Counted from the stretch's first letter, positions 6,420 through 35,316 are shown. The stretch is DNA of 57,344 nt from a virus (IMGVR_UViG_3300018410_000010:1-57344), one strand, 5' to 3'. The notes: generated from the sequence alone by a model not told the origin. Numbers and translations: made by a program.

Positions 6420-6977
6420 TTACTGTCTATGCAAATATAAATCGACCGGTATACAAATTCTAAGGCTAGAAAGATAAGGATTTACGCAATGATATGCAAA
6501 GCTTGGAAATATCATATAGTCACCAGTTTTTGGCGCATGAATATGGTTTTGAAACAAAGAAAAAAACCAATCATCATATCCTCTATTACAATTCGATCTA
6601 GGATCTGAAAATACTATTTCGCCTCCTACGTCTTTTTCTTCTACCATAATGTAAAATACTCCAGACAATTGAGAACCAGAATGATTATGATTTGACATAC
6701 TATAGTACTTACCATGTCCGGTAATCCAAGCTTTCATCTCATAACTATCATAATCTGAAATTCTTTTACCAATTGTATTTATAAGATATTCATCAAATTT
6801 ATTATAAACTACTTTTTTAAACTTTTCCATTGTGGAATGTTTATCAGCAAAAATACTGTTTCCATCTACGCCGGGTCTTGAGCTTAAATCATAGTTAGAA
6901 AAAATATATTCGACTAAGCCTTCTACTTCAAAATTACCAGAGCCAAACATAGTCGGCCATAAAGCATCCATTTTCAT
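6420..6977 (-). CDS. 2OG-Fe(II) oxygenase (phage HxH type)
   Basis: HNHSGSQLSGVFY...GGEIVFSDPR...P.TGDYMIFPSFAYHCVNP...RI. Confidence 0.85.
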   Translation of the reverse strand: MKMDALWPTMFGSGNFEVEGLVEYIFSNYDLSSRPGVDGNSIFADKHSTMEKFKKVVYNKFDEYLINTIGKRISDYDSYEMKAWITGHGKYYSMSNHNHSGSQLSGVFYIMVEEKDVGGEIVFSDPRSNCNRGYDDWFFSLFQNHIHAPKTGDYMIFPSFAYHCVNPYLSSLRICIPVDLYLHRQ

Positions 6978-7001
6978 ATTTCACCTCATCATATATAAAC
7001 C

Positions 7002-7009
7002 TATTTATA
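7002..7009 (-). promoter_or_regulatory. T4-type late promoter TATAAATA
   Basis: Exact motif 25 nt upstream of the 6977 start, in the divergent intergenic region. Confidence 0.7.
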
Positions 7010-7021
7010 GGATTTTTACAG

Positions 7022-7055
7022 TTGACATTTTCATCTGAATGTGTTACTATAAATA
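7022..7055 (+). promoter_or_regulatory. Overlapping sigma70 promoter and late promoter for the + strand operon
   Basis: TTGACA (7022-7027), 17 nt, TG-n-TACTAT (7045-7050), overlapping TATAAATA (7048-7055), 23 nt before ATG 7079. Confidence 0.75.
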
Positions 7056-7078
7056 TAGATTATTAAGATAGGATTAGA

Positions 7079-7537
7079 ATGACATTTGACCAATTTGAAG
7101 CTTACTTGTTATCCGAAGCTTGTTATCAAAATCATGACGTCTCTATTATCGATCATCAACAATTGCAGCACTATATAAAAGCAAACGACTTTATAGAATA
7201 CAACGCTTTGATGTCTAGCCATTTAGCTCAAGGTGTAGTCACTATTAAAGTAGAGCAAATGGAGCGCTATTGGGAGTTCGATGATAGAACAATTCATGCT
7301 TTCTATAATCCAAAAAATGGTCCAACATTTCCTGAACATACTGACGATGTAGATGTTATTATCGAATGTAAAGATGGAATTAAAAATATGGAAGTAGACG
7401 GTAAAGAAATTGCATTGCAACCGGGTGATAAGTTGATTATATCAAAGGGAACAATGCACAAAGCATTAAATTATGAAAAGGCATTAATGGCATCACATGG
7501 GATTGGCGACACAGCGTCACTTGAGCGTTTACGTTAA
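7079..7537 (+). CDS. Cupin/JmjC-like oxygenase
   Basis: FPEHTDDVDV (HxD) ... LQPGDKLIISKGTMHKA (distal His). Confidence 0.75.
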   Translation: MTFDQFEAYLLSEACYQNHDVSIIDHQQLQHYIKANDFIEYNALMSSHLAQGVVTIKVEQMERYWEFDDRTIHAFYNPKNGPTFPEHTDDVDVIIECKDGIKNMEVDGKEIALQPGDKLIISKGTMHKALNYEKALMASHGIGDTASLERLR

Positions 7538-8522
7538 AACGACAGAGACTTGTAATTTAAACTGTTCTCACTGTTTTACTTCTGGCATTAATGGAGCAAA
7601 AATTTATTTTGATCCAGTTCGTACTGCCAATTGGGTGAATCAGCTAGACAGAGATACAATTTTTTACGAATTTCACGGGGGTGAGCCTATGCTTGCCTCC
7701 GTCGAATCTATGCGCAAATTTGTTGAACTTACAAAGGGTGAAGGTGTCGATTATGGTATGACAACAAATTTGGTGTACAAACTTACAGATGAAAAACTTG
7801 AGTTTTTTGACGACGTCTTAAATAAGAGAATTGGAACGTCTTGGGATCCTACTATACGTTTTACAAATGATAGGCAAAGAAAACTATGGGAAGATAACGT
7901 AAAACTGCTAGTTGAACGCGGCTATACAATTAAATGTTTTGTGAGTTTAAGTAAAGATGTAATTAATATGGAACCAAGAGATATTGTTTCTTATATGGAA
8001 TCTCTTGGTGTTAAAGAACTAGATTTTGAGCGTATTACTATGGATGGTAACGCTAAAGGAAAAATGTGGCCATCTAACATTGAATTAGATAAATGGTTTA
8101 TGAGATATCATAATCAAATCGAAAGTAGAGATTCTATTTTTCATGTAATTATGGAAAACATTTACGCTAAATTTGAAGATAATAATCCATCTCGTGGTAC
8201 TTGGTGTAGAGATTGCGAACAAAAACTATTGACAATTAATGCAGATGGTAGTATAGCTGGATGTCCTAATACTGCTCCTCATAAAGCATACGGGCATATC
8301 GATACTCCCGCAAAAGAAGTAATGAAATCTACTGGCCGATGTGATATTATAATTAAAGAATTAAATAGAAATCCTGCATGCTTTTCTTGTCCGGTATTTG
8401 ATGTATGTGGATCAGATTGTCATCAATTAGAGTGGGAAGGTGAAATATGCCCGTCTCCTAAGAGTTTAATGCAGCATCTGAAGGATATAAATAATGTACA
8501 TATACTTAGAATTGGAGCTTAA
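7497..8522 (+). CDS. Radical SAM/SPASM protein 1
   Basis: CNLNCSHC, FHGGEP, C..C...INADG...GC, CFSCPVFDVCGSDC (Cx2Cx5Cx3C). Confidence 0.93.
   Translation: MGLATQRHLSVYVKTTETCNLNCSHCFTSGINGAKIYFDPVRTANWVNQLDRDTIFYEFHGGEPMLASVESMRKFVELTKGEGVDYGMTTNLVYKLTDEKLEFFDDVLNKRIGTSWDPTIRFTNDRQRKLWEDNVKLLVERGYTIKCFVSLSKDVINMEPRDIVSYMESLGVKELDFERITMDGNAKGKMWPSNIELDKWFMRYHNQIESRDSIFHVIMENIYAKFEDNNPSRGTWCRDCEQKLLTINADGSIAGCPNTAPHKAYGHIDTPAKEVMKSTGRCDIIIKELNRNPACFSCPVFDVCGSDCHQLEWEGEICPSPKSLMQHLKDINNVHILRIGA
8486..8493 (+). promoter_or_regulatory. Internal late promoter TATAAATA for the 8525 gene
   Basis: Exact motif in the 3' end of rSAM1, 31 nt before ATG 8525; GGAG RBS at 8514-8517. Confidence 0.65.
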
Positions 8523-8524
8523 AA

Positions 8525-9106
8525 ATGGTATCTTTAAATAATAATGTTAGAAAGTCTAATGTTATTGACAGATGGGAAGATTATGTCGCTGACGACGCAA
8601 GAGGTGGTCTTGTGTGGGGATTAGACGCTAAGCCTTTCAGTACTGCTCCAGACGATTGGTTTGGAGGAGATATTGCTAGCCCACCTGCAAAAGACTCTTA
8701 CGTTTCAGACAGCAATATTAGTGGAACACTTATTGAGGCAACAGCCACGCGAAACGCGCTAGTGACTGGCACAACACAGTGGACTCATCTAAGAAATATG
8801 CGCGCGGTTCAATTATTTAATTCCCAAGGCACCCAGCAGGGAACATTTGATGACACACAAAAAGCATACCAAGAAACTGGTCAAAGAGTAGATGTTACAG
8901 ATCCTGCCATTCCAACACAAGGGCCTTCAAATAATGGAAATCTCATTACTATCGGCTCAGATTCTGCACAAACTGGTATGGAGCACTATCTTGCTAGACT
9001 TCGCGGCGCTTATAGAACTATTCGAGATGACGCAGTATATAGAGAACAAACTGTCTGCCATTACAGCTGTCACTATAGCTGTCACGGCTCAAGAGGAAGA
9101 AGATAA
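8525..9106 (+). CDS. Putative substrate/precursor protein with C-terminal (CHxS)3-RGRR tail
   Basis: 193 aa; all three Cys lie in the terminal CHYSCHYSCHGSRGRR; adjacent to rSAM/SPASM genes. Substrate role is inferred. Confidence 0.7.
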   Translation: MVSLNNNVRKSNVIDRWEDYVADDARGGLVWGLDAKPFSTAPDDWFGGDIASPPAKDSYVSDSNISGTLIEATATRNALVTGTTQWTHLRNMRAVQLFNSQGTQQGTFDDTQKAYQETGQRVDVTDPAIPTQGPSNNGNLITIGSDSAQTGMEHYLARLRGAYRTIRDDAVYREQTVCHYSCHYSCHGSRGRR

Positions 9107-9846
9107 TGAATACAAGAGATACAGTGGCTCCTATTCCTATTGAATTACTTAAGGAGTATTTTAGTGATGATAGTATCGTTTTTAATATTGACTATGAAAA
9201 AAGTCTTTTAAAGGGTGATAAGATTATTACGTATCTAAGCAATTTAGATGTGCCATGCAAACTTACAGGTTTTGATAATGTTTCTTTAGAAGATAAAATG
9301 TCTTTAGTAAGAGATTATATGAATTCAAATCTCATAATTAACAGCAATGAACTTGAAGTATGCGTACTTAAAATATTACATAACGCAGCCATATATGATT
9401 TTGTGCGTCGATATGACGTTCAAGATATTTTAGACGAAAAAGAAATAGAGATTTTTTGCGAAAAAAATAAAGAAATAATTCATAAGTGGCTTGTTATGCT
9501 AGCAAGCTGTTCAGTGTATGCCATATATTCGATTGAAGATTTTAAAGATAAGGTAAAAGAAGAATTTGAAACTATAGATGATTATGATTATTGTGGCGTG
9601 AATTTTGTGCAATTATTTAAATACGAAGATACTCAGGTTTTGTTAACAAATCAAGACTTAGATGTATATTATTTTGAAAAACAATTTAACGAGCCTATGT
9701 TTAAAGGAGCTAATATATTTTATTATTGGCAAACAGAGGAAAACACAATGGCAATTATGGCATGGGGAATATCAACCGGAGAAATAAAACACGGTGATTT
9801 CACCCGTGCTATAGAAAAAGGATACGAAAATGTTTCTGCTTTTTGA
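9106..9846 (+). CDS. Hypothetical protein of the rSAM cluster
   Basis: 246 aa, TAATG-coupled to 8525-9106; no recognised motif. Confidence 0.75.
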   Translation: MNTRDTVAPIPIELLKEYFSDDSIVFNIDYEKSLLKGDKIITYLSNLDVPCKLTGFDNVSLEDKMSLVRDYMNSNLIINSNELEVCVLKILHNAAIYDFVRRYDVQDILDEKEIEIFCEKNKEIIHKWLVMLASCSVYAIYSIEDFKDKVKEEFETIDDYDYCGVNFVQLFKYEDTQVLLTNQDLDVYYFEKQFNEPMFKGANIFYYWQTEENTMAIMAWGISTGEIKHGDFTRAIEKGYENVSAF

Positions 9847-11002
9847 TAGAGTTTATGTTAAGTACGATTTTTTACTTGACAACAACGTTGATAATTTAAC
9901 TATCAGCCCTAATTTATCAATTCTAAACTGGGATGCGCTTGAGCTGGTGCATTCAAACATGGGTAATGAAATGCACAGGGTGCAGTTATATGAGCAACTA
10001 TTTCCCGGTTTTACATCTCCTGCAATGCCTGAAGGACAAGATCCTTTGCGAGAAATTGATACTCCCTACCCAAATGATCTAGCGTTTTTTCAAGCATTAT
10101 TAGATAAAGGACGCCTTAATATACACGTAGATACTGTTGCTTACGACCAACTCTTTTCTAAATTCTTAAAAATATTCTTTCCAAATATGCCAAGGGAAGT
10201 AGTATGGAAAACTTATAACATATTTAGAACAAATAGTCAACTACTTAATACAACTTCTTTTATATGGGGAGTTGAAGGATATGATGCAGTACAGCAAGCA
10301 AATGCAGATGCATGGGTGCCTAGAACAAAGACTCAATTTTTAGAAGTATTTGATGCAACAACTTTAGATTTACCTGACGCAGATTATAATACATTTAGAA
10401 CTAATGCCAAGCAAAAAATTGGAATTGAATGGATGATTGCAAATAGATTAAACGGCGATCAAACATACGATGTTTCTCTTGGCGAAAAAATGTATAAGCT
10501 TATGTCACAGCGTATTAATGAAGAAGTACAGTTTCTTAAGTCATCGTTATTTAGTAATCTATTTAGAGGATGGTCTCAAACAGTATTAGGATTGTCGTCA
10601 GTTGATGCTAATACAGATTTAATGGATCTTCGAGATACTAATGATAAAACCCGATGGTTATTTGATGATGACGATAAATTCTCATCTCCTGATTATCTTG
10701 CTCGTCACCCAAATATTCAATTTAGTACAATACGTACAAATATTTTGCAAGCGGTTACCGCAAATAATACTCCAATCGAAGAAGCTCTTACAGATGATAT
10801 GATGAATTTCGTATATAATAATACCGCATTACAAAACTTTACAACTGCTGATATTACTACAATATTAGATAATGATAGAAATCATTTAGGTCCATCAGTA
10901 TTTGAATCTGAAGATAGAATTAAGGTAAATTCTTTATTTTTAAGTTACATTTATAAACTTAAAAACAACGATGATAGTGAGTTAGGCTTATTTAGTTTAT
11001 GA
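9830..11002 (+). CDS. Hypothetical protein of the rSAM cluster
   Basis: 390-aa ORF overlapping both neighbours; AAGGA RBS; no recognised motif. Confidence 0.75.
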   Translation: MFLLFDRVYVKYDFLLDNNVDNLTISPNLSILNWDALELVHSNMGNEMHRVQLYEQLFPGFTSPAMPEGQDPLREIDTPYPNDLAFFQALLDKGRLNIHVDTVAYDQLFSKFLKIFFPNMPREVVWKTYNIFRTNSQLLNTTSFIWGVEGYDAVQQANADAWVPRTKTQFLEVFDATTLDLPDADYNTFRTNAKQKIGIEWMIANRLNGDQTYDVSLGEKMYKLMSQRINEEVQFLKSSLFSNLFRGWSQTVLGLSSVDANTDLMDLRDTNDKTRWLFDDDDKFSSPDYLARHPNIQFSTIRTNILQAVTANNTPIEEALTDDMMNFVYNNTALQNFTTADITTILDNDRNHLGPSVFESEDRIKVNSLFLSYIYKLKNNDDSELGLFSL

Positions 11003-11541
11003 TTCAAAATTGCTATGAGTCTTCGATATGGATTAAACAATTTGTAAATAGCGATAATTTCAATCAAGACGTTTTAAATACAACTAAAGCAATATCAGCC
11101 ACGGTTCCTGAGCCTGTGGCTGATTATAATATTGACTTGTGGCAAACAGATAATATGCTCACAATTAAGTCTTACTTTACTGAAGGATTTAATGCGCTTT
11201 GTGAGCAGTACGAAGAATCATCTTCTTATAATATAGATTCTATGAATATTATCAATCCTATGAAGTTTGGCGATTTTAAATCATGCCATACTCATGATGT
11301 GATTGATGCCTTTGGTGTATATTATCTAAATGACTCTGAAGAAGGCGGTAAGCTTAGATTATATGATCCACGATTCTTAAATAAAAAATCATTTACCAAA
11401 GAAGCATATATAGAAATAGAACCTAAAACTGGTTTAATGGTTGTAGCTCCTTATTATATTTGGCATGAAGTTACTCCATACCTCGGAAAAGAAACGAGAT
11501 ATAGTTTAGTATGTAATATGGTATTTGATAATGTTGTCTAG
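10999..11541 (+). CDS. 2OG-Fe(II) oxygenase (HxH type)
   Basis: HTH...GVYYL...GGKLRLYDPR...PKTGLMVVAPYYIWHEVTP...R.S. Confidence 0.85.
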   Translation: MIQNCYESSIWIKQFVNSDNFNQDVLNTTKAISATVPEPVADYNIDLWQTDNMLTIKSYFTEGFNALCEQYEESSSYNIDSMNIINPMKFGDFKSCHTHDVIDAFGVYYLNDSEEGGKLRLYDPRFLNKKSFTKEAYIEIEPKTGLMVVAPYYIWHEVTPYLGKETRYSLVCNMVFDNVV

Positions 11542-12547
11542 TATAATTCCCACACAAAACGTAGATATAATAACGAAACAAAATAAAAGATCTCAAGATG
11601 GTGAGATCATTGTTACGTTATTTGAATATTGCAATCTCAGCTGTACGTTTTGTAATCAAGATCATAATAGTCTTGAAGGCATAGATACAATTTTAGAAAA
11701 AATACAGGTTGTACAGAATATTATCCAAAAAACTCCAAAGGACCATTATAGTGTGCACTTTATGGGAGGCGAAGTATTTGCTGATGGTTTGCCTGATACA
11801 GTATTTGATGATTATGTAATCTTATGCCATGAATTAAATACATGGGCGCATCAACAAAATATTAGTCTTGAAATTTGTTTTACAAGTAATATGGTCTTTG
11901 ATAATAGAGAAAGATTAGATAACTTTCTTTATCAATCTAATCCTACGTTACTTACAAGCTTTGATCCAGCAGCAAGATTTAATAAAAAGAATTTTAAAAT
12001 ATTTCAAGATAATGTGAAGCACTACAAAGACTTTATTAAGTCTGCTAATGTGATTATGACTAGACCAACTATAAATAAGTTCATGAATGGCGACGTAGAG
12101 TTTTTTGATTATCTTTACGACAACTTCGATATATATTTTGATTATTATACACCAGAGAAAAATATGAAGTTGTTTATTCCAAATGATATTCAACTGCGCG
12201 ACTTTATGATTTATATGCTTGAGCATTATCCTAAAGCTTTACCATTTGCTGATTATACAAATAAAGTAAAAAAGCAAATGAGCTGCATGGATACAATAAC
12301 AATTATGCCAAACAATTCATTTGGCGCCTGTACTATACTGTTGAATAATTTTAAAAATGTAACGGCAACAAAAATCGAAATGGAACAAGAATGGTTCAAG
12401 CAATATAATTGTCTTGAATGCCCACATTTTCAATACTGTTCTATGGGATGTTTTTTGTCAAACCATATGCAAAGTTTTAGAACACAAGAAGCATGCTGGT
12501 TAAGTGAGGTTTATGATGTGGTCCACTCCAATACAAGTATTCAATAA
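11525..12547 (+). CDS. Radical SAM/SPASM protein 2
   Basis: CNLSCTFC, FMGGE, CLECPHFQYCSMGC; start may be ATG 11531. Confidence 0.92.
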   Translation: MIMLSSIIPTQNVDIITKQNKRSQDGEIIVTLFEYCNLSCTFCNQDHNSLEGIDTILEKIQVVQNIIQKTPKDHYSVHFMGGEVFADGLPDTVFDDYVILCHELNTWAHQQNISLEICFTSNMVFDNRERLDNFLYQSNPTLLTSFDPAARFNKKNFKIFQDNVKHYKDFIKSANVIMTRPTINKFMNGDVEFFDYLYDNFDIYFDYYTPEKNMKLFIPNDIQLRDFMIYMLEHYPKALPFADYTNKVKKQMSCMDTITIMPNNSFGACTILLNNFKNVTATKIEMEQEWFKQYNCLECPHFQYCSMGCFLSNHMQSFRTQEACWLSEVYDVVHSNTSIQ

Positions 12548-12977
12548 TGGATATCAAGATCCATTCGAAAGATATAAAGATTTTTTAAAAGATCATTATA
12601 AGCTTGATTTAAACGATTTTAAATACGACATACGAGAATGGAAAACAACTCCAGGCTCAGGCTATTGGATGTCTCCGCATAATCATGGTCACTCTCATTT
12701 TACTTCAATATATTATAATCACATTTCTGGTGAAGGTGGTGAATTAATTCTTCATGATCCAAGAGTAAACGCAAATAGAGGATTTCCACAAGAGTTTGGA
12801 TCTGAGTTTGCTCCTTACATTATTCAGCCAGAAACTGGAATGACTGTGATATTTCCATCTTACGTTTATCATACAGCTGCGCCATTTAGAGGCATAATAA
12901 GAGAAGCAAGCGTAAGTGAGATACAGCTTGCGAGTATAAGTACTGGGGATTCATATTTAGGAGCAACATCGATATGA
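12504..12977 (+). CDS. 2OG-Fe(II) oxygenase (HxH type)
   Basis: HNH..HFTSIYY...GGELILHDPR.NANRG...IFPSYVYH; probable start is ATG 12513 or 12516. Confidence 0.85.
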   Translation: MRFMMWSTPIQVFNNGYQDPFERYKDFLKDHYKLDLNDFKYDIREWKTTPGSGYWMSPHNHGHSHFTSIYYNHISGEGGELILHDPRVNANRGFPQEFGSEFAPYIIQPETGMTVIFPSYVYHTAAPFRGIIREASVSEIQLASISTGDSYLGATSI

Positions 12978-13609
12978 ATGTAAATCAATTTTATAAGGAC
13001 GGATATGATGAATGGGAAATGCCTTCACATTTAAAAGCTATGATCTGGGGACAACTACTCAGTGAGAATTGGATTGATCATCCGGTTTATAAAGCAATTC
13101 CAGATTGGAGTATTAATCAAGGTGGTGAAGCTCAACTATATCGACAAAAATATGAGCGTAGAGATGAGCAAGAAATTAATCAAAAATCTTTAGAGCTTAT
13201 TCCTGAAACATATAGAATGGTAATTGAAGAGTTATTTAATGAAGGTTATTATCATGAATGGTTTCAAAACGTGTGCGGATATAATTATAAACTTAAATTC
13301 GTCGATGTATGGAATGGCTCAGACGATCTAGGATGGCATTGGGATGGAGTTGAAGATCACGATATTGGATTCTTAATTTACTTTACTGAAGAACAAAACT
13401 GGAAAAAAGAATGGCAATCATACTTATCTCTTGGCGAAAGAGATTGGCAGCAAGAAAATATTGAGCTTAAACACACGGCTTATCCTGCTAATGGTAAGAT
13501 TATATTGTTAAATAATATGAATCCAAGGTTTGTGCATTCTGTTGCAAAACTAACAAATGATAATGTAAATAGATATACAATTAACGCAGGCTTTTCTTTA
13601 TGGAATTAA
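12974..13609 (+). CDS. 2OG-Fe(II) oxygenase (prolyl-hydroxylase-like, HxD)
   Basis: WHWDG...LIYF...P..GKIILLNN..PRFVHSV...RYTI. Confidence 0.82.
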   Translation: MNVNQFYKDGYDEWEMPSHLKAMIWGQLLSENWIDHPVYKAIPDWSINQGGEAQLYRQKYERRDEQEINQKSLELIPETYRMVIEELFNEGYYHEWFQNVCGYNYKLKFVDVWNGSDDLGWHWDGVEDHDIGFLIYFTEEQNWKKEWQSYLSLGERDWQQENIELKHTAYPANGKIILLNNMNPRFVHSVAKLTNDNVNRYTINAGFSLWN

Positions 13610-14595
13610 TTATTAAACCAACTGAACGTTGCAATTTTAAATGTACTTTTTGTTCAAGTACATCGATTGCTGATGACATAAAAGATCAGTTGGGTTTAAG
13701 CTATATTTTCAAATTTCTAAAAAGATTTCCAAACACCAATACAATTATTGTAAATGGCGGCGATCCATTAATGATGGATCCTAAGTATTATCGAAAATTG
13801 TTAGATCATATTGAAATTTTCAATTATCAAACAACCGTTTCTTTTACTACAAACCTATGGCCTTTTTATAAGAATCCTGAAAAGTGGATAGATATTTTTA
13901 CACATCCACGAATGGGAATTACAACAAGCTTTCATTATGGTGATTCTAGACTTAAAGGTGATTATTCAGTATTTACTGAAGAAGATTTCTGGGCCGTATC
14001 AGATAAAATGTTAGAACTCGTCGGTTATAGACCCGATTTTATTTCAGTAATTGACGAAGCAAACGAAGATACAGCTTTAGATAATGTAAGGCTTGCAAAA
14101 AAGATGGGTGTTGAATGCAAATTAAATTATGCTATGGCATCAGGTATTCAATCTCGCCCATATCAATTATCTAAAATGTATAAATTATATTTAGATGTTT
14201 ATGAAGCTGGTTTAACCGACTGGGAATTTAATACTAAGCAAATGATTAAACGTCTACGCAATGAAGCTTTAATGTGTCCACAAAATAGAAATTGTGATGA
14301 TACAATCAGAGCACTGCAACCTAGCGGCGACTATTACTCATGCGGTGCTATGGGAGACGATAGAGAATATTCTATTGATTTTAATCGAGAAATGAATGGC
14401 GAATTTTTTAGACCATTGCAAGAAGATCTCGAAATACAAACAATGCATGACGGATGCTATACATGTCCAATGTTCCAAATTTGTAATGGATGCAAGAAAA
14501 CAGTCAAAGATACTAAACGACATAATATGGTTGAAGAACACTGCACATTAATGAAACAATTAGCTCCAAGGATTATCGATGCAAATAACGGATAA
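13600..14595 (+). CDS. Radical SAM/SPASM protein 3
   Basis: IIKPTERCNFKCTFC, NGGDP, CP...C...P.GDYYSC, CYTCPMFQICNGC. Confidence 0.93.
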   Translation: MELIIKPTERCNFKCTFCSSTSIADDIKDQLGLSYIFKFLKRFPNTNTIIVNGGDPLMMDPKYYRKLLDHIEIFNYQTTVSFTTNLWPFYKNPEKWIDIFTHPRMGITTSFHYGDSRLKGDYSVFTEEDFWAVSDKMLELVGYRPDFISVIDEANEDTALDNVRLAKKMGVECKLNYAMASGIQSRPYQLSKMYKLYLDVYEAGLTDWEFNTKQMIKRLRNEALMCPQNRNCDDTIRALQPSGDYYSCGAMGDDREYSIDFNREMNGEFFRPLQEDLEIQTMHDGCYTCPMFQICNGCKKTVKDTKRHNMVEEHCTLMKQLAPRIIDANNG

Positions 14596-15139
14596 TGCCC
14601 TTTCGAATATTGATTATAAGAAAATTCATCATTATTTTACTTCAGAAATACCAATATGGCGTTTTATGCCTGGAATTAATGATAATGTTAACAGTACTAA
14701 TCAGCCTGAATACAAACCGACTTCATGGGGTTTTACATGCAATATTAGCAATACTATAGCGGACATTAAGGATAAGCATGCTTATAGATTATTAAAACCT
14801 CTTATTTTAAATAAAGAAAAATTAGTGAGAATCAGATGCGGATTTATAGTGAATGTAGGTCCGTCTAAACTACATAAACCTCATATTGATCAGCAATCAA
14901 TAGAACATATTACTCAACTTTATTATTTAACAGATAGTGATGCTGTTACAAACGTATTCGAAGAATATGGAAATGACCCAAAATATGATAGTTATCAACC
15001 CGAAGATTTTACTGTTAAATTCCGATGTACACCAAAAAAGAATAGAATGTTTATTTTTGATGGAATGCATTGGCATAGTTCTTCGCCCGTTTTGGGTAAA
15101 GAAGCAAGATTAGTGTTGTCGATTAATTATGCTAAATAG
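14579..15139 (+). CDS. 2OG-Fe(II) oxygenase
   Basis: PHID...LYYL.DSD..T...PKKNR.FIFDG.HWHSSS...RLVLSIN. Confidence 0.8.
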   Translation: MQITDNALSNIDYKKIHHYFTSEIPIWRFMPGINDNVNSTNQPEYKPTSWGFTCNISNTIADIKDKHAYRLLKPLILNKEKLVRIRCGFIVNVGPSKLHKPHIDQQSIEHITQLYYLTDSDAVTNVFEEYGNDPKYDSYQPEDFTVKFRCTPKKNRMFIFDGMHWHSSSPVLGKEARLVLSINYAK

Positions 15140-15836
15140 AAGTCCAAATTTTAACGATCTATATTTAAAAGGCGCCGATATCGTAGAGGTTGATTCGTCA
15201 TTTAATGCTATGCTTTATGGATTGCTAATGGCTGAAACCTTTGTCGGTGATGGCGCAATTCAAAATCCAATTTGGGATAGAGAATATCATGAAAGAGATT
15301 TAGATGTTTATGTTAAAGGAAAGCAGCCTTATTTAGAATTTTTCCAAGAAGTTGTTAAATCAGAATATTTTGATTATTGGAGGCATGTTTACGGAGATTT
15401 TGATGAAATACATGTAAACATTAATAAGGTAGACCAAACCGGGGAGATGCCTTGGCACTTTGATGGCTTCGATGGAACTTTATTACAAATTCTTTGTTAT
15501 CCAAACATGGATGATTTTGAGGAAAAAGATGGCGGTCATTTTTTAGTTGGTAGACCTGATAATTTATATCGAAACGGAGACCCTATGCCTCATTGGGATC
15601 CTCAATCTTCTTTAGATAATATTTTAACAAAAAACGTAAAAGTTACACAAAAGTATGTACCTAATCGAAATAGTGTGGTAATATTAAATAACAATGATCC
15701 ATCTTTTGTTCATAGAGTAACTCAGTTAAAAGCAGATAAAACTCGATATACAATTATCGCAACGCTTGGCTTTAGTTCTCTTTGGTCTCAAAACAAATTA
15801 AAATTGGGTCATTATAAAGGCACCAAATTATTATGA
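15129..15836 (+). CDS. 2OG-Fe(II) oxygenase (paralog of 12974-13609)
   Basis: WHFDG...DGGHF...P.RNSVVILNN.DPSFVHRV...RYTI. Confidence 0.82.
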   Translation: MLNRSPNFNDLYLKGADIVEVDSSFNAMLYGLLMAETFVGDGAIQNPIWDREYHERDLDVYVKGKQPYLEFFQEVVKSEYFDYWRHVYGDFDEIHVNINKVDQTGEMPWHFDGFDGTLLQILCYPNMDDFEEKDGGHFLVGRPDNLYRNGDPMPHWDPQSSLDNILTKNVKVTQKYVPNRNSVVILNNNDPSFVHRVTQLKADKTRYTIIATLGFSSLWSQNKLKLGHYKGTKLL

Positions 15837-16738
15837 TTATATCTTTGAATCCAACATATCTATGTAATTTTAGATGTGATTTTTGTTATCTCACTTCAGA
15901 ACAATTGGCAGATAAAAATAAAATTGATTTAGAATTGTTAGATCAAAGACTGCTTGAAGTTTCTAATTATCAGCCTATCAGATATATTGATTTATATGGC
16001 GGTGAGATTAGTACTTTAAATGATGAGTATTTTTATGATTTAAAAAGAATTATTCGTAAACATTACCAAGGCGAAATAAACATTGTAACTAATTATGCTT
16101 CTCCAAAAAGCTATATGCATGACAATGATATTTCACTATCTGTATCATTTGATTTTGAAGCTCGTGAAAGATCTGATCTAGTATTTGCGAATATGCTTGT
16201 AAGTCCGGTTCCTATTTCTGTGCTTATTCTTGCTAGCCCTAAAGTCATAAATATGGACGTTGGGCAAATGATTCAACAACTTTCAATGCTTTCAAATATA
16301 CGTTCGGTAGAAATTAAACCGTATTCTACAAACCAAGCAAACGCGCATAACGTAACTCATAAAGACTTCGAATTGTTTGTTGCTGATTGGTTAAACCGCG
16401 ATCTACCGTTTGAGTTTGAAAATAGGCATCGTATTCATGAATCTTTATCTGGAAATTATGACGCATTTAGTAATGACCATGTATATATAAATCCAAACGG
16501 CAAGTTTGCTGTGCTCGAATTTGATAAAAATGATAATGAATACTTTTTAGAATTAGATACTTTTAAAGATTATCTTAAATGGGCAGATGAAGAACCGATA
16601 AAAAATGTCTCTGATATATGTAGAGAATGTAAGTGGTACGGTAAATGTTTGACTGAACATTATAGATATGTTAAAGATTTAGATAATGGCTGTAACGGCT
16701 ATAGAGGACTTTTAGAATGGCAAGAAAAAAAATATTGA
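15833..16738 (+). CDS. Radical SAM protein 4 with reduced SPASM-like domain
   Basis: CNFRCDFCY, LYGGE, INPNG, CRECKWYGKC..EH...GC. Confidence 0.9.
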   Translation: MIISLNPTYLCNFRCDFCYLTSEQLADKNKIDLELLDQRLLEVSNYQPIRYIDLYGGEISTLNDEYFYDLKRIIRKHYQGEINIVTNYASPKSYMHDNDISLSVSFDFEARERSDLVFANMLVSPVPISVLILASPKVINMDVGQMIQQLSMLSNIRSVEIKPYSTNQANAHNVTHKDFELFVADWLNRDLPFEFENRHRIHESLSGNYDAFSNDHVYINPNGKFAVLEFDKNDNEYFLELDTFKDYLKWADEEPIKNVSDICRECKWYGKCLTEHYRYVKDLDNGCNGYRGLLEWQEKKY

Positions 16739-18057
16739 TTGTTGGTGGTGGTACTGCGGGTTGGATGACCGCATTAGTTCTTTATCAAAAATACGATGTT
16801 ATGATGATTGAATCACCGAGTGTACCTATTATTGGTGTAGGAGAGTCAACTACAGAAACGGTAATGGATGCTTTGCGGCAAGGTGGTGTTGATATTAATG
16901 ATTTTGTTAAGCATACAAATGCTACACCTAAATATGGTGTAAACTTTTCTAATTGGAGCTCTAAAGATTACTTTCATGCATTCGGAGAAAATTTTTTAGA
17001 AAAAATCTTTGGTGTCGCAGAATGTAATGACTTTTTAGCAGACTGCCATAGATCTGGCAAAGATGTTATATCACTAAGTCCATATACTCATATGGCCCAA
17101 AAAGGAATAGATCCAGTTTTTGGAACAGATGAAGAGTTTTGGTGGGACACAGCTTTACATTGGGAAGCTAGTAAAGTTCCAGAATTTTTTAAAAAATTCC
17201 TTGAAAATAAAATTGTACACATTTACGACCATGTTAATGACGTGCAATCAAACGATTTTGGTATTACAAGTGTAAACGGCCATGTCGCAGATTATTATAT
17301 TGATTGTACTGGCGGTAAAAGAATTTTAAGTAATCATTTAGGAATTAAATGGCAATCTTGGAAAGATGTAACTCCATTAGATTCTGCAATTACATTTAGT
17401 ACTGAAGCAAAGCCAAAAACTTACTATACAAACGCGCATGCTATGAATTGTGGATGGGAATGGTCTATTCCATTACAAGATAAAATGAATCATGGATATG
17501 TATATTCATCTAAACATTGCACACGAGAAGAAGCTCTTGCAGAAATTAAAGCAAAAAGAGGTGATGTTGTAATTAATGGCGACGTTCATTTTGAACCAGG
17601 AGTTTTAGAAACTATAGCTACAAAAAACTTATGCTCAATTGGATTGTCTGCTCATTTTATCGAACCTTTAGAGGCTACAAATATTGAACTTACTGTTATT
17701 ATGGCTAAAGAATTTGATAAAGCTATTGAAAATAATAGTATCGATGAATTAGAAACAAGACTGCAGCAAATTGTAGAAGAAATAAAAAGATTTGTTTTAT
17801 TTCATTATTCTATACCTGAAAAACAAGGACAGTTCTGGAAAGATATATATCAACAGTATACACAAGATGATGTCTTAGAGCGTAAGCAAATTTATCCTTG
17901 GCATCCATTTAATTGGTATTCTGTAGCTCAAGGAATAGGATTTAAAAGAGAATTAGATTTTGTGGATATAGAAGTAGATTATTTAACAACTGAATTTGAA
18001 GTACATAGGAAGGTGGCAGAACTTGAAAGAATGGAAAGTAAGACAAGAAGTCTATAG
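16717..18057 (+). CDS. Flavin-dependent tryptophan halogenase family protein (PrnA/RebH-like)
   Basis: GGGTAGW, IGVGEST, K.G..F.NW, IDCTG, WEWSIPL (WxWxIP), FIEPLEAT. Confidence 0.88.
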   Translation: MARKKILIVGGGTAGWMTALVLYQKYDVMMIESPSVPIIGVGESTTETVMDALRQGGVDINDFVKHTNATPKYGVNFSNWSSKDYFHAFGENFLEKIFGVAECNDFLADCHRSGKDVISLSPYTHMAQKGIDPVFGTDEEFWWDTALHWEASKVPEFFKKFLENKIVHIYDHVNDVQSNDFGITSVNGHVADYYIDCTGGKRILSNHLGIKWQSWKDVTPLDSAITFSTEAKPKTYYTNAHAMNCGWEWSIPLQDKMNHGYVYSSKHCTREEALAEIKAKRGDVVINGDVHFEPGVLETIATKNLCSIGLSAHFIEPLEATNIELTVIMAKEFDKAIENNSIDELETRLQQIVEEIKRFVLFHYSIPEKQGQFWKDIYQQYTQDDVLERKQIYPWHPFNWYSVAQGIGFKRELDFVDIEVDYLTTEFEVHRKVAELERMESKTRSL

Positions 18058-18412
18058 AAGATTAAACGAATCTTTAACCGATGATTTAAATAAAGTAGAT
18101 ATTGTTTGGCGCCCAGAAACAATTGTGGAAGACGCTTTGCGTCATTGGGATGAAGAAGTAGATGAATGGATATATCCTGGTAAATCCTATTTTGTTGCTA
18201 TATGTTATGCGTATTGGATATCAGAAGACTTTGAAGAGGACTTTGAAGAAGTTTTAAATGACCCAGATTTGCTTCCAGGCGATCCATATTTTTTACCATA
18301 CAGCCAAGCAGAAGAAGTATATGACGAAATACTTTCAGCAGTGCGTTATATAGAAGACGGCGCTATGGTATCTGAAGTAAGAAATTATTATGATGAAGAG
18401 ATGCAGTTATGA
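18023..18412 (+). CDS. Acidic hypothetical protein of the rSAM cluster
   Basis: ORF track gives 17996-18412; TTG at 18023 follows an AGGAAGGTGG RBS and is the more likely start. Contains WIYPGKSYFVAICYA. Confidence 0.7.
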   Translation: MKEWKVRQEVYRRLNESLTDDLNKVDIVWRPETIVEDALRHWDEEVDEWIYPGKSYFVAICYAYWISEDFEEDFEEVLNDPDLLPGDPYFLPYSQAEEVYDEILSAVRYIEDGAMVSEVRNYYDEEMQL

Positions 18413-18963
18413 TTGAAAGTAAATGGTCAAGTAAAGGCGAAGATACGCATTTTCATAGACCAGATGATTTTAAAGATTTAAAATCTTTGAAAAAAGATAG
18501 ACCTTATTTGTCATTAGAAAATATTGAATTAGTTGGTATTTCAGATACTAGTATTAATATTACATATAATGGAGCGCCGCCTGCAACTATATGCGCTTTT
18601 TTTGGTGTAGATAATCATGTCTTTTGTGATTATTATGCGCTTGAATTGTGTGCAGACGGATCTGAAATTTTAAAAATATATGATCAGGATTTATCTAAAC
18701 ATCCTTTGCCATCGTTACCCGTTGGCGCAAGATTAGATCCCCTTAAATCTGGAATTGGAATATATTATCCAGATGCTCAATTAGCAAAAATATATTTCTT
18801 ACATGACAATCCAGAACTTGTTCATAAGTGGTGGGGATCTAAAAATCCACCAGGACAAATTTCTAGGCTTACTTATTTTGGCGTAGAATTTGATAGAAAA
18901 ACTTTAATTACAACAGATATTTCACAATATTCAATTTATGATAAGGAGGAAGACCTTGGCTAA
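18409..18963 (+). CDS. Hypothetical protein
   Basis: 184 aa, ATGA-coupled to the upstream gene. Confidence 0.7.
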   Translation: MIESKWSSKGEDTHFHRPDDFKDLKSLKKDRPYLSLENIELVGISDTSINITYNGAPPATICAFFGVDNHVFCDYYALELCADGSEILKIYDQDLSKHPLPSLPVGARLDPLKSGIGIYYPDAQLAKIYFLHDNPELVHKWWGSKNPPGQISRLTYFGVEFDRKTLITTDISQYSIYDKEEDLG

Positions 18964-19525
18964 ATCAAACAAAACAATCGCAGTGGTAGGCGCGCATGGT
19001 GTCGGTAAAAACACTATTTGTATTAAACTTTTAGAACGCGAAAAATTTAAAGAGCGTGGTGTGAATGTCACGTATATGCCAGAAACAGTTCGCTCTACTA
19101 TGTTTATGACCGGTGAAATTTTAGAAAAAGAAATAGGCGGTAATTATTATTCTTGTAGCTGGTTGTATCATAGGCATTGGAGTCAAATGCTAGAACATCA
19201 ATATAGTTGTGATGTTTTTATTACTAAAAGACTTCCTCTAGATTATGTTGTATTTAATGAATGCGCATTTAAGCTTGGATTAATTGACAGAATGCTAGAT
19301 CCTCAATATAAAGAATTAGCAGTAATGCAAGCAGCTGATTTTGATGAAGTGTACTTTGTACGCCATAATCCAGAATATGAATTAGTAGAAGATAGTGTAA
19401 GAAAAGGGGCTGCAGCCAGTTCTGAACTACAACCCCTTTGGGATAAACGTTATAAAGAAATTATAGATCACTGGAATATTCCTGTTATTGAAGGAACATG
19501 CGGCGAACTATTAGAGTTATTTTAA
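18938..19525 (+). CDS. P-loop NTPase/kinase (NadR / AAA_28-like)
   Basis: IAVVGAHGVGKNT Walker A, E..R, R.PLDY, DSVR lid-like segment. Confidence 0.75.
   Translation: MIRRKTLAKSNKTIAVVGAHGVGKNTICIKLLEREKFKERGVNVTYMPETVRSTMFMTGEILEKEIGGNYYSCSWLYHRHWSQMLEHQYSCDVFITKRLPLDYVVFNECAFKLGLIDRMLDPQYKELAVMQAADFDEVYFVRHNPEYELVEDSVRKGAAASSELQPLWDKRYKEIIDHWNIPVIEGTCGELLELF
19399..19439 (-). terminator. Intrinsic terminator for the tail-fibre transcript, embedded in the antisense kinase CDS
   Basis: Minus-strand RNA AAAGGGGUUGUAGUU-CAGAACU-GGCUGCAGCCCCUUUUCUU: long stem with four G-U pairs, then a U tract, ~80 nt after the stop at 19522. Confidence 0.7.
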
Positions 19526-22500
19526 ACTTTAACTTCTACTTCTCCGTCTTTAGAATCACATAGAGCAATACCAAGAATTTCATGGCTTCCAATACCAGAA
19601 GTTCCGTATGGTACACCTTTACATTTACCAACGGCTTCTGGATCCGGAATTAGCCACATACCTTTTTTGACTGCGCCATCTTCACCAGATACAAATGCTG
19701 GAATACGACCTTTTAAAGCAATAAATGGATTCAATTTTGATTTTTTAGATTTCATATTCTCGATGCCCATGTCATTCATTTTGACACCAGGATTAGTCGA
19801 GATGATACCAGCTACTGGCAAACCTTCACGCCAAACTGTAATCTCAGAATCACCATCTAAATCGATACCCATTAAAGTACCTGGCTCATAGATTTCATCA
19901 GCAGTATAACGTTCCGCCAAGTCAGCCCAGCGAGCTGATGTTGCAGTACCATGATAAACACCATCATTTGCAACATAAGATTTGTTCGACCCATTTACGC
20001 GGAATTGGCAAATACGGTTAGAGTTGCCGCCGACTTCCATATAGAAACGGTTTGAGTGATATTCAAGCTTACCAACATCGTTACCAACGTTACCAGTCCA
20101 GGTTTCGTCACCGCCCTCTTCAAATCTCCAAGTTGGTGAATATCCGTCTTCCTGGCGATATCGTAATTTCCAAGAGCCGGCTCTATTAAGGAAACCACCC
20201 CATGCTCCAGAACCATACAACCACATACGAATAGTACCATCGTAATTTGACCTCATTCTTATACTGATACTTGAACTGTTGTTATTGCCGGTCACAGCCC
20301 AATACTGGGCTTGCTCTGAATAGAAGTGACAACCAGTTGCTTGGTTATATAAACCCTCATCTTCATTATCATTACGGAACCAGTTACGGGCGTAGAACTC
20401 GTTAGCTCTTACAGAAGTAGCAAAGTTAGAAGCACTAGATGGATCACAGTAGTAACCAGTATTATCTGTATCATAATAGATATTAGCATACATTGCAGCG
20501 TTGTTATTATTATTAACACCAAGCACTGGTATTGTACGCCATGATCTCCAACCAGACCAAGAAGAACGGAATCTCAAGTTCTCAATTGGACCACCAACCA
20601 TCTGCCAACCATAACCAGAAGTATTAGAGTTACGATAGTGGTATGCCTGACAACCAACCCAGTGAGATGTACCTGAAGGCTGGTTGTTTGGGTTTCCCCA
20701 AGAATCAATAAATCCTGAACCCCATGTACCTACGACGTTCATATCCTGGGTGCCCCAGCCCATAGCACCAGTCCAATAGTTTGTATCACCAGTCTGTCTT
20801 GGGCGTGCTCTGTAATACTCACCTGAGTTTCTTGTATGACCTGGCAATGCCATGTAAGCCATTGTACGGTTGTTCACACCTAAGAAACGAGAGCTGTTTG
20901 TGGAAGCCGGATTCATGTAATAACCAGTATCATTTGAGTCATAGAAGATCGGCGCTCTTAACGATGAACCAGCTTGTAGGTTATTGTTAACATAAACGTT
21001 ACTGCCACCAAGTGCATCAGAAGCGTTGTTAATCGACATAACCTGACCAGACATATTATAGTCAGTATAGAAACGCATACCATTGTAAGAAGCGTTTGCA
21101 CCAAACTTAAGACCAGTGTGGAATGCAATCCTTAGATCTGGATACGGATTAGACCAACCACCTCCTTCACGATAGATAGCATATGCTGTAGATCTATCAC
21201 TTGACCAGTAAATACCAAAGCTGTCATTTGAAGAAACTGAGCCGTCGTTTGTAAAGTAGTTTGCGCGTACAAGGTTGAGTCTTGATGTACTGTTAGGATC
21301 TATATAGTAGTTAGTATCATTTGTATCGTACATAATTGGAGCGTAGAAGTTATGATACGAACGTACTTCACTATTAGTACATCTAAGCGCCCAACCGTCA
21401 TCTTGAGATAGAATACCAATCTGGTTGCTGTTATTAGCATAGAATCTACCACGTCTGTTGTTACCAGATGTGTGCATATCAATACTGACTACGTTTGCAG
21501 TAGAGTACGCTCTCCAACGCTCAGTAGAAGTTGCATACCAATGCATCGCGTATGCGGTATTGTATAGACCTCTACCACCAGTATCGTTACGGAACCAACC
21601 ATCGTTATAAATTTCACCACGGTTATCAATCGTATTCATTACAGATGTTGAAGCAAAGTCACCATAATAGTTACCGTCGTTGCTATCTGTAAATCTTTGA
21701 GCGTAATGAGTACCTGTTGTGAATGTATTACCATCACCACGAATCAAGAAGTTTCTATCACCGCTTAGACCACCATCATAGAATGCGATGTCTTCGCCAC
21801 CAGATGTAGCAATCTTTAAGTGAGCATCGTTAGTGTCTGTAGCTTGAATATATCCACGAAGGTTACCATTTGAAGTATATAATCTGAGTTCGTTACCACC
21901 ATTAATACGTAGCTGGTTAATTTGTGATGTACCACCTGGATTCATATAACGAGCTGTGTTATCTTCATCATAGTAAATAGCAGCATACAAATCGTTACCG
22001 CCACCATCTGGGTTAACATCATATAACGCAACGTTGCGATAGTTAGAATACGCAGTTCCTGAGTTCCAAGACTGCTGCCATAGACGCATTCCATGACCAG
22101 ATTTCTTGAACATAAGCAAGTTATCTGATCCACCTGAAGAATCAGTGTATGATCTTAAGTGTAAGTAATCGGCCCAAGGTGATGTGTTATTATTAGCCCA
22201 TGATGTGAAACCAAAACGCAAATAACCAGATGGATCTTCGTTTGGTTCAATAATACGATTATCTCTACGTAGCATCCGTTCAGAGTAACCATTTACACTA
22301 CCCTGAATTACGTTATCAACCTGTAAAGTTAATAGACGTGATGTACCATTACCATCAATACGATATGTTGTATTGTTTGAATCATAGAAGATTGGTGCAC
22401 GGTAAGAACCACGAGCCTCCATATATCCTGATGCTGTTCTTTCTTCCCATGTGCCATTATAATAAATGTATACGCGAGCATTACGCTCCATGTACAATTG

Positions 22501-28695: not shown

Positions 28696-28736
28696 TCGGT
28701 TCACTCTCCCCAGTTAGGCATTTGTCGTATTTTGTA

Positions 28737-35308: not shown

Positions 35309-35316
35309 TATTTATA
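35309..35316 (-). promoter_or_regulatory. T4-type late promoter TATAAATA
   Basis: Exact motif 20 nt upstream of the 35288 start, just after a terminator. Confidence 0.78.

Follow-up and report, generated by a model that had tools for sequence, protein, structure and literature searches.

Gene content of the operon

We have analysed a viral DNA stretch of 57,344 nucleotides from IMG/VR (IMGVR_UViG_3300018410_000010:1-57344; below, the window), which carries a plus-strand operon combining radical S-adenosylmethionine (rSAM) enzymes, oxygenases and a small protein that ends in a Cys/His/Ser repeat tail. The operon (7079-19525) consists of 17 open reading frames (ORFs; g01 to g17), and neighbours overlap by 1-62 nt or lie 2 nt apart. 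An earlier interpretation made without database searches (the sequence-only reading) had described 17 overlapping or abutting genes between minus-strand genes, encoding four rSAM enzymes with C-terminal Cys clusters, six 2-oxoglutarate (2OG)/cupin oxygenases, a Trp-halogenase-like enzyme, a P-loop kinase, four unknowns and the tail protein, with no evident protease or exporter. Our ORF listing agrees with this layout, and the Pfam matches and Cys positions recover the same proteins, with the qualifications that rSAM4 has only four C-terminal Cys and that g11, one of the five 2OG oxygenases found beside one cupin/JmjC_2 protein, scores just under the cut-off. The P-loop kinase was weakened, because its match to AAA_28 reaches only E 9e-4. 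No protease, peptidase, exporter/transporter or RRE domain (the recognition element of RiPPs, which are peptides made ribosomally and modified after translation) was detected in the 17 operon proteins with Pfam and NCBIfam.

The radical SAM enzymes

The rSAM genes are g02 (rSAM1; 7497-8522), g07 (rSAM2; 11525-12547), g10 (rSAM3; 13600-14595) and g13 (rSAM4; 15833-16738), all on the plus strand, and their products carry the CxxxCxxC motif at residues 19, 36, 11 and 11, respectively. Since the proteins start 11-36 residues before this cluster motif, none appears to have a fused N-terminal recognition domain. At the other end, rSAM1 shows a seven-Cys pattern, rSAM2 has Cys at positions 254, 269, 296, 299, 305, 309 and 324, and rSAM1-3 share Cx2Cx5Cx2-3C with flanking Cys; the four Cys of rSAM4 lie at 263, 266, 272 and 287. 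For Pfam PF04055 (cut-off 29.5 bits), rSAM3 (36.6) and rSAM4 (32.0) pass while rSAM1 (27.1) and rSAM2 (26.6) stay just under; the latter two match phrog_1802 (3e-63 and 1e-37). We assign all four ORFs, by sequence, to the radical SAM superfamily PF04055. With the SPASM model TIGR04085 (cut-off 27 bits), rSAM1 scores above (27.4) and rSAM3 below (20.8), and rSAM2 and rSAM4 give no match; we regard rSAM1 and rSAM3 as putative radical-SAM/SPASM proteins, rSAM2 as SPASM-like and rSAM4 as a radical SAM protein.

The best NCBIfam matches of the four enzymes are peptide or protein maturases (DarW, DarE, anSME, HxsB, DynA, PapB and FxsB), and profiles of rSAM1 (E 1.8e-6, 4k37) and rSAM3 (E 5e-7) align with anSME over the full length. 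QueE and MoaA are also matched, more weakly than the maturases and only in the N-terminal rSAM core. In a quick maximum-likelihood tree of 78 proteins from 17 of 233 loci, the rSAM proteins fall into four orthogroups (Shimodaira-Hasegawa-like approximate likelihood ratio support 99 for rSAM1, 99 for rSAM2 and 100 for rSAM4; all 99-100), each including sequences from the window, IMG/VR, jumbo phages and bacteria, and a fifth, phage-only group holds extra paralogues. rSAM3 is the most conserved, with 53-66% identity in distant carriers. An apparent insertion in rSAM3 of some loci was discarded: the match ran into the adjacent paralogue rSAM4, the ORF is continuous and there is no Rfam match.

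A tail protein with an invariant C-terminus

Between rSAM1 and g04 lies g03 (8525-9106, +), a protein of 193 residues that ends in CHYSCHYSCHGSRGRR directly followed by the stop codon. This (CHxS)3-RxRR tail (9056-9103) conforms to a 16-residue consensus, C-H-x-S-C-H-x-S-C-H-x-S-R-x-R-R, and a degenerate DNA pattern of the consensus was found in at least 116 viral contigs of IMG/VR. The motif is in frame in 113 of the 116 listed viral loci (the other three have no in-frame copy), and all 144 in-frame copies stand directly before a stop codon; two copies occur in 31 of the listed loci. The 161 tail proteins form a single BLAST cluster and the family ranges from 124 to 309 residues. An alignment of 68 representatives has a mean column identity of 14%, with the tail residues C, H, C, H, C, H, S, R, R and R invariant. 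The motif search itself fixes the Cys, the His and three Arg, which hence do not vary among 166 unique canonical tails; the three Ser positions of these tails are filled by Ser in 165, 154 and 159. The strict motif missed seven of 11 rSAM3-positive bacterial genomes, so its count is a minimum, and there is some circularity in invariance figures that rest on it. A search that does not depend on the motif gives the same picture: a profile of the g03 family, run against 1.84 billion representatives, recovered 884 clusters at 50% identity (671 at E <=1e-10), and the canonical tail ends 139 of the 150 best matches, the remaining 11 being close variants (for instance with one more Gly ahead of RxRR, or with four repeats) or truncated.

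The AlphaFold2 model of g03 has a well-predicted helix/beta-hairpin body (predicted local distance difference test, pLDDT, 86.6; predicted template modelling score 0.81) and a tail of low confidence (pLDDT 57-59). Compared with the Protein Data Bank (PDB), the model gave no fold match (Foldseek best E 1.0), and the best hit of a wide VIA-align search was unconvincing (Z 4.6, root-mean-square deviation 5.9 over 131 residues of a designed protein), misses that do not by themselves make the fold new; searching BFVD returned uncharacterised family members only. Neither a signal peptide nor a peptidoglycan-binding domain was seen in g03, as judged by eye and Pfam. A complex prediction of rSAM1 and g03 with SAM and three 4Fe-4S clusters (score 0.09, mark 0.32) has no bearing on binding.

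Distribution among phages

A tblastn search with rSAM1 returned 15 records belonging to 12 cultured jumbo phages (37-46% identity), and the carriers include jumbo phages of Ralstonia, Burkholderia, Agrobacterium, Sinorhizobium and Pseudomonas. In RSF1, Atu_ph07, Phosso and pPa_SNUABM_DT01 the cupin and rSAM1 orthologues are followed by a protein of 178-306 residues, and the tail is present in all four (CHSSCHSSCHGSRGRR, CHSSCHASCHNSRSRR, CHTSCHASCHSSRSRR and CHTSCHTSCHSARGRR). Orthologues of the cupin, rSAM1-4, g04 and g15 are all present in these four phages.

Two larger sets of loci extend this association in both directions. Among 120 loci anchored on the tail motif, which are short stretches, tblastn found rSAM1 in 76, g04 in 75, rSAM2 in 55, the cupin in 44, rSAM3 in 39, rSAM4 in 28 and g15 in 21, and the halogenase, g16 and the P-loop protein in none. 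Conversely, an rSAM3 profile detected relatives encoded by 340 viral contigs, and in the best 80 of these loci we found rSAM4 in 77, g15 in 74, rSAM2 in 69, rSAM1 in 66 and the cupin in 57, together with a canonical tail in 55 and a variant one in two (CHYSCFTSSCHFSRGRR). The tightest linkage of all is the order rSAM1-tail-g04. Among L016, L069, L171, L228, L237 and L238 there are carriers in which two rSAM1-like genes flank the tail gene.

In a second architecture a giant gene (up to 2823 aa) comes first, then two tandem tail proteins of ~127 aa; between these and the rSAM1-4 block lie additional rSAM paralogues, five or six in number, together with g04- and g05-like genes. This architecture was observed in L005, L063, L047, L105 and ~27 further IMG/VR loci. 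The roughly ten rSAM genes per phage in this arrangement fit the T4-like genome with 12 rSAM genes listed in a marine survey (PMC5332604).

Islands in bacterial chromosomes

The tail DNA pattern was also searched across 185,579 prokaryote species, each represented by a single genome, and 22 of the 27 places that it matched are real C-terminal tails. Several of the matches lie on contigs resembling mis-binned phages. About half are in assemblies labelled Bdellovibrionales, Bacteriovoracaceae, Halobacteriovoraceae or Pseudobdellovibrionaceae, with some contigs of 0.3-1.3 Mb. In one such genome (G001) the island reads rSAM4, rSAM3, rSAM2, tail, g04, g05-like, a second rSAM2, g16-like, rSAM1, g15 and cupin, and is flanked by genes for serine dehydratase, an Mrp/NUBPL ATPase, YchF, a class A penicillin-binding protein, a lytic transglycosylase and a Peptidase_S74 protein. 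The last of these (413 aa, a fibre chaperone type; L148:14764-16005, -) lies two genes, or ~1.9 kb, from the island.

Within the Bdellovibrio-like phylum of G001, rSAM3 was found in 11 of 301 sampled genomes. Four of these have canonical tails and five have variant tails missed by the strict pattern (CHSSCHADCHYARGRR, CHSNHCSHSNHGSRGRR, CHSACHSSCHGSRGRR, CHSSCHSSCHGARGRR in two copies, and CNSNFICHSNCYTPPPKSRSRR); in a further one the locus stops at the contig end just past g04. The system, as the sequences indicate, is thus not confined to phages: bacterial chromosomes carry it as well, with housekeeping genes on either side. G088 encodes two tail proteins of ~200 aa next to each other. The island of G003 contains a B12-binding radical-SAM protein of 575 aa (L150:14152-15879, +), so that this lineage may have an additional step of the methylation type.

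A conserved core of nine genes

The first gene of the operon, g01 (7079-7537, +), encodes a cupin/JmjC-like oxygenase (JmjC_2 24.8 bits, cut-off 22; Cupin_2 23.1 bits), and its orthologue lies directly 5' of rSAM1 in all four jumbo-phage loci; besides the rSAM3-anchored loci counted above, the cupin also occurs in the Bdellovibrio-like islands. Iterative hidden Markov model (HMM) searches, covering 4376 ORFs from 233 loci, traced the remaining families. g04 (9106-9846, +; phrog_20767), which follows directly after the tail protein, was found in 176 loci, including the four jumbo phages and three Bdellovibrio-like genomes. g05 (9830-11002, +), a protein of 390 aa without any Cys, gave 132 matches in 123 loci, including RSF1 ORF072, phage DT01 and the Bdellovibrio-like islands. 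g15 (17996-18412, +; phrog_20737, 138 aa), which follows rSAM4, was recovered in 102 loci; its TTG start is uncertain because homologues start ~10 residues further in. An occasional member, g16 (18409-18963, +), was found in 12 loci, including Atu_ph07, Phosso and G001.

These proteins offer few leads from known families. Pfam has no domain in 9106-9846, 9830-11002, 17996-18412 or 18409-18963, NCBIfam gives nothing for g03, g04, g05, g15 or g16, and g04 and g05 have no lead in the ESM Atlas either. The AlphaFold2 model of g15 (pLDDT 89.7) has no fold match in the PDB (Foldseek best E 2.1; VIA best Z 3.4), a result which, like that for g03, does not make the fold new.

Judged by these distributions, the core is made up of nine genes, namely the cupin, rSAM1-4, the tail protein, g04, g05 and g15, while the halogenase, the P-loop protein and most of the 2OG genes are accessories. 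The sequence-only reading had proposed a complete RiPP-like cluster encoded by a phage, with rSAM enzymes akin to peptide/protein SPASM maturases rather than to nucleotide or cofactor enzymes and a product that might stay on the virion or be set free at lysis, and had called for a survey of the rSAM genes, the tail and the unknown genes together. The kinship of the rSAMs is borne out by NCBIfam and the profile alignments, and rSAM1-4, the CHxS tail, g04, g05 and g15 do occur together across distant phages. The notion of a complete cluster is narrowed to a nine-gene core with accessories, that of a phage system misses the bacterial islands, and the idea of a RiPP-like precursor had to be given up, as g03 is a predicted folded protein of a 124-309-aa family with a fixed tail and not a diversifying core. 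In keeping with this, classical RiPP clusters differ from what we find here: the precursor is long and predicted to be folded, and no peptidase, transporter or RRE was detected. The module is probably a conserved system in which rSAM/SPASM enzymes mature a whole protein, and not a small exported peptide. Its most likely substrate, as far as sequences can tell, is the g03 tail, since this tail keeps strictly to the C-terminus, stays invariant while the body evolves fast, and co-occurs in both directions with the rSAM genes.

Accessory enzymes and the alternatives they raise

Five 2OG-Fe(II) oxygenase genes are interleaved with the core on the plus strand. g08 (12504-12977; PF13759, 46.4 bits) is a frequent accessory, with a relative in 66 of the 80 rSAM3-anchored loci; g06 (10999-11541; PF13759, 38.6 bits) and g09 (12974-13609; PF13661, 39.8 bits) occur in 20 and 27 of the 80, and g11 (14579-15139; PF13640, 26.1 bits) and g12 (15129-15836; PF13640, 27.2 bits) are lineage-specific (seven and nine loci). 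By the Pfam gathering score (27 for the 2OG families) the oxygenases and the cupin can be placed in the 2OG-Fe(II) and JmjC/cupin families, g11 being just below.

The lineage-specific accessory g14 (16717-18057, +) is predicted to be a flavin-dependent halogenase of the tryptophan type, matching PF04820 (Trp_halogenase) with 245.8 bits (cut-off 21; 1e-72). Such halogenases are marked by a GxGxxG FAD site, a WxWxIP motif and a catalytic Lys and Glu. In the alignment with the best PDB match (6frl, 1.4e-43), GGGTAGW, the Lys in ATPKYG, GWEWSIP and EPLEA of g14 align; with 446 aa it is ~50-100 residues shorter than solved tryptophan halogenases. The gene was found in eight of the 80 rSAM3-anchored loci and, as mentioned, in none of the shorter motif-anchored ones. 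Tyr or Phe occurs in the tail of six of nine halogenase-bearing loci against 17 of 191 others; we dropped this as a sign that the halogenase acts there, since a single lineage accounts for all six and no such residue occurs in a second lineage with the halogenase.

Cyanophage Syn9 carries tandem arrays of dioxygenases and tryptophan halogenases, for which synthesis of metabolites was suggested (PMC2938197, Iyer et al. 2010, as far as the accessible part of that study goes). The window resembles these arrays in having a JmjC-like protein, several unrelated 2OG oxygenases and halogenase homologues in one phage operon, and differs in that its oxygenases are interleaved with an rSAM core; no rSAM or tail protein is described in that accessible part. 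The extra oxygenases and the halogenase of the window may accordingly be seen as a lineage-specific layer resembling the cyanophage arrays.

The same likeness raises the alternative that the operon makes a small molecule, such as a secondary metabolite or cofactor, from free amino acids or a short peptide, with g03 serving as carrier, scaffold or donor of metal or Fe-S. Six oxygenases and a halogenase in one operon agree with such a product, the Cys/His-rich tail could bind metal, and the closest structure to g14, 6frl, is BrvH, described in the portion of the report available to us as an indole halogenase that refuses tryptophan (PMC7754283). However, the oxygenase/halogenase part is the one that is not conserved, Pfam and NCBIfam revealed neither a peptide synthetase or ligase nor a transporter or peptidase, the rSAM enzymes match peptide and protein maturases best, and an invariant, strictly C-terminal tail across 884 clusters fits a fixed enzymatic target. 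We regard a small-molecule product as unlikely.

The last gene of the operon, g17 (18938-19525, +), is lineage-specific and found in seven loci only; it is weakly similar to P-loop NTPases or kinases (AAA_28 as given above; phrog_2107, thymidylate kinase, E 3e-4). Since rSAM enzymes and kinases of phages take part in thymidine hypermodification (PMC8989533, PMC5889632, both known to us in part), this likeness to thymidylate kinase, together with the weak rSAM matches to QueE and MoaA, could point to modification of nucleic acid, that is, of bases in phage DNA or tRNA. The rarity of g17 and the limited QueE and MoaA matches speak against it, Pfam found no glycosylase, transferase or DNA-binding domain, and the system is also found between housekeeping genes of bacterial chromosomes. 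A role in nucleic acid modification is thus highly improbable.

Genomic context and expression signals

The window is treated as part of a marine or estuarine T4-like myovirus, because one neighbouring gene has relatives only in Synechococcus phages and marine viruses (~32% identity) and DNA near-identical to the window was found in salt-marsh and seawater metagenomes. Megablast with the whole operon and tblastn with g03 gave no match in a phage collection that may lack near relatives. The complete 17-gene order, including the halogenase and the P-loop protein, was seen only in the close relatives L155-L157 and in L158, which has a variant tail. G+C is 0.32-0.36 across the module at 7000-20000 against 0.37-0.45 across the downstream structural genes at 20000-44000, and the GC skew of the module is positive; the lower G+C is compatible with acquisition of the operon as a block.

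On one side the operon is flanked by a divergent 2OG-Fe(II) oxygenase gene (6420-6977, -; phrog_81), a seventh oxygenase that stands beside the module in close relatives too; the gene labelled '2OG-' lies upstream of the cupin in L154-L156 and L158-L159. The other flank is a giant protein of 3060 aa (19522-28704, -) whose stop overlaps the last operon gene and in which a short motif ending Tyr-Tyr-x-Asp recurs. A second giant of 3903 aa is encoded at 40391-52102 (-), and the scanned C-terminal 499 and 699 residues of the 3060-aa and 3903-aa proteins, respectively, have no Pfam match. The remaining genes of the window code for virion components, namely a head-tail adaptor, tail fibres, the two giants and a collagen-repeat fibre (35386-39957) in which Pfam finds a Peptidase_S74 domain. 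Sugar- or lipopolysaccharide-type genes adjoin the virion genes (2498-3286 and 3259-4518, both -), a pair consisting of a heptose kinase/adenylyltransferase-like protein (phrog_7878) and a 419-aa protein; the latter has relatives in Synechococcus phages that carry the annotation CcmH/NrfG or FkbM methyltransferase.

A promoter-like region precedes the operon (7022-7055, +), consisting of TTGACA-N17-TACTAT (7022-7050) overlapping the octamer TATAAATA (7048-7055), which lies 24 nt upstream of the first gene. The spacer 6978-7078 contains one TATAAATA per strand and thus looks like a divergent promoter region. In the window the octamer occurs 11 times against 7.8 expected; seven of the 11 copies lie at most 35 nt upstream of gene starts, including those of the two giant minus-strand proteins. 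Copies upstream of gene starts on the coding strand are at 2429, 6409, 7002, 7048, 28737, 35309 and 52133, the one at 35309 standing ~350 nt upstream. It is the placement before gene starts that is suggestive here, and not the number. Sigma-70-like matches (73 against 66.9 in shuffles) and terminator-like ones (six against 4.9) show no excess. TATAAATA may be a T4-type late promoter, and in that case expression of the operon would coincide with that of the virion genes. Two salt-marsh metatranscriptome runs yielded RNA-library contigs that match parts of the operon with 0-1 differences, and one spans 8643-9108, most of g03. Such libraries can hold DNA, and from contigs the strand and the level cannot be read, which makes this a weak hint of transcription; the uncovered parts, e.g. 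15112-19383 in X17 and X18, carry no meaning.

The company of virion genes raises another explanation, in which the enzymes modify other proteins, such as the neighbouring giant fibre-like virion proteins, and g03 is an unmodified metal-binding structural or adaptor protein. Giant or fibre proteins adjoin the module in the window, in Atu_ph07 and Phosso and in the class with tandem tails, a Peptidase_S74 protein lies near the island of G001, and TATAAATA precedes both the operon and the giant genes. The large neighbours, however, vary between carriers while g03 is conserved, the closest linkage is that of rSAM1, tail and g04, and there is no fibre gene among the annotated ORFs of the G002 and G003 islands (some flanking ORFs were not scanned). 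This explanation seems to us quite unlikely.

Comparison with known maturation systems

The closest parallel in outline is the HXS antiphage system, in which, according to the part of its description available to us (PMC13128918), HxsA with five His-Xaa-Ser repeats is accompanied by the rSAM enzymes HxsB and HxsC and the small protein HxsD. The system, 99.7% of which belongs to Pseudomonadota, is reported there to act in defence, the rSAM-matured HxS protein blocking DNA entry. In both cases several rSAM enzymes and a small partner would mature a whole protein of ~200 aa that stays a protein, acting on a series of H-x-S units set in basic sequence. The two differ in most other respects. rSAM1 scores 41.1 bits with HxsB (TIGR03978, cut-off 370) and rSAM3 31.2 with HxsC (TIGR03977, 267.9), and g03 has no match to HxsA in NCBIfam. 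In the present system there are three units instead of five, each preceded by an invariant Cys, at the extreme C-terminus and followed by RxRR; there are four rSAM orthogroups with a cupin and three other families, and the carriers are phages and Bdellovibrio-like bacteria. By its sequences the module would fall outside HXS and share with it the H-x-S unit only.

Anaerobic sulfatase maturase (anSME; PDB 4k36-4k39) is the sole solved structure matched over the full length, including the SPASM part, by the rSAM1 and rSAM3 profiles. This enzyme has no fused recognition domain, acts on protein substrates and oxidises Cys or Ser within the sulfatase motif C/S-x-P/A-x-R. The last unit of the tail, C-H-x-S-R, has the same Cys-to-Arg spacing. 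On the other hand, rSAM1 (45.2 bits) and rSAM3 (36.3) are far from the TIGR03942 cut-off of 349, of 166 tails, 153 have Gly, Ser or Thr where the motif has P/A, four have Ala and none has Pro, and no sulfatase is encoded nearby. We would therefore not assign the two enzymes to the anaerobic sulfatase maturases TIGR03942.

Three-residue cyclophanes are formed by the rSAM/SPASM enzymes HaaB and HtkB, which join His C2 to the C-beta two residues on (PMC11499958, available part), a spacing that the H-x-S of the tail formally fits. Their substrates are short leader-core peptides that are later cleaved, unlike the folded protein with Cys between the units considered here. The rSAM matches to the cyclophane families FxsB, YhhB, XyeB and AmcB, whose core motif is aromatic-x-x, are weak (best 33.3 bits, FxsB; cut-offs 350-450), and the scores would place our enzymes outside FxsB, YhhB, XyeB, GrrM and AmcB.

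A protein-sized substrate is also known from Methanococcus voltae, where the SPASM rSAM enzyme CrpC makes thioether (ranthionine) cross-links in the protein CrpA (PMC13692751, likewise known in part). The likeness, drawn from the description only, lies in an rSAM/SPASM enzyme encoded beside a protein-sized substrate with Cys as the target; the differences are that CrpA is cysteine-rich, that CrpC has a predicted RRE and that one enzyme acts there against four here. From these precedents (PMC13128918, PMC11499958, PMC13692751) and the evidence on the tail, we propose protein maturation by cross-linking or oxidation.

Genes of the module have been recorded before. They exist as PHROG families of 'unknown function', and jumbo-phage papers list them, in the sections available to us, without interpretation (PMC8066314, PMC11898562). 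Open-access PubMed Central and bioRxiv literature contained no description of the system, of the CHxS tail or of its occurrence in Bdellovibrio-like bacteria.

A possible maturation pathway

Several observations weigh against maturation of the tail. Every rSAM family score is far under its curated cut-off in NCBIfam, and no chemistry can therefore be transferred by homology. The tail was not seen in 23 of the 80 rSAM3-anchored loci, mostly because of contig-end cuts or an arrangement with the tail genes more than 8 kb off; in one viral locus (L226) g04 comes immediately after a divergent rSAM1, without an intervening tail gene, and in the rSAM3-positive bacterial genome G222 no tail gene was seen within 20 kb. 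The record of RSF1 does not place the tail protein among the genes annotated as virion structural. Finally, the Cys, His and Ser of the tail recur at i, i+4 and i+8, so that it could instead form a metal-binding helix, and AlphaFold2 confidence in this region is low.

Under the maturation that we favour, the substrate would be the C-terminal tail of the small, presumably cytoplasmic protein g03, and the four anciently diverged rSAM enzymes, of which rSAM1-3 have SPASM-type auxiliary-cluster Cys and rSAM4 a shorter Cys cluster, would work on the side chains of its Cys, His and Ser. The likeliest reactions would be Cys thioethers or His-to-C-beta links per H-x-S unit, and/or oxidation of Cys or Ser, and hydroxylations would probably come from the JmjC-like cupin and the 2OG oxygenases. 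g04, g05 and g15 probably present the substrate or are partners of the enzymes. The product would remain a modified protein, as no protease or exporter is encoded. Lineage-specific tailoring may then be added by the extra 2OG oxygenases, the flavin halogenase and the P-loop protein interleaved with the core.

A more speculative extension, which we consider rather doubtful, is that the matured tail forms a cage of cross-linked Cys/His/Ser units capped by Arg, possibly a metal site or cofactor. Its formation would fall late in infection, and it would serve large phages and predatory Bdellovibrio-like bacteria in breaching or crossing the Gram-negative envelope.

Implications

rSAM/SPASM maturases are a main source of new peptide chemistry, and to our knowledge nearly all known cases concern short peptides in bacteria. 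The present module is unusual in that a single invariant 16-residue tail on a folded protein is accompanied by four rSAM paralogues, all of them conserved, by an oxygenase and by three proteins whose fold is unknown. It is also unusual in being widespread, and common to large phages of unrelated hosts and to chromosomes of predatory bacteria. The tail provides a defined short target, suited to mass spectrometry, for new cross-link chemistry. If our interpretation is true, it would give a function to 'hypothetical' genes of RSF1, RSL2, FLC6, Atu_ph07, Phosso and DT01, and would explain the dozen or so rSAM genes in some marine T4-like phages (PMC5332604). A link to the newly described HXS defence is possible, and if the tail were indeed matured into such a cage, the module would be an offensive counterpart of this bacterial defence as it is presented in the available part of its description (PMC13128918).

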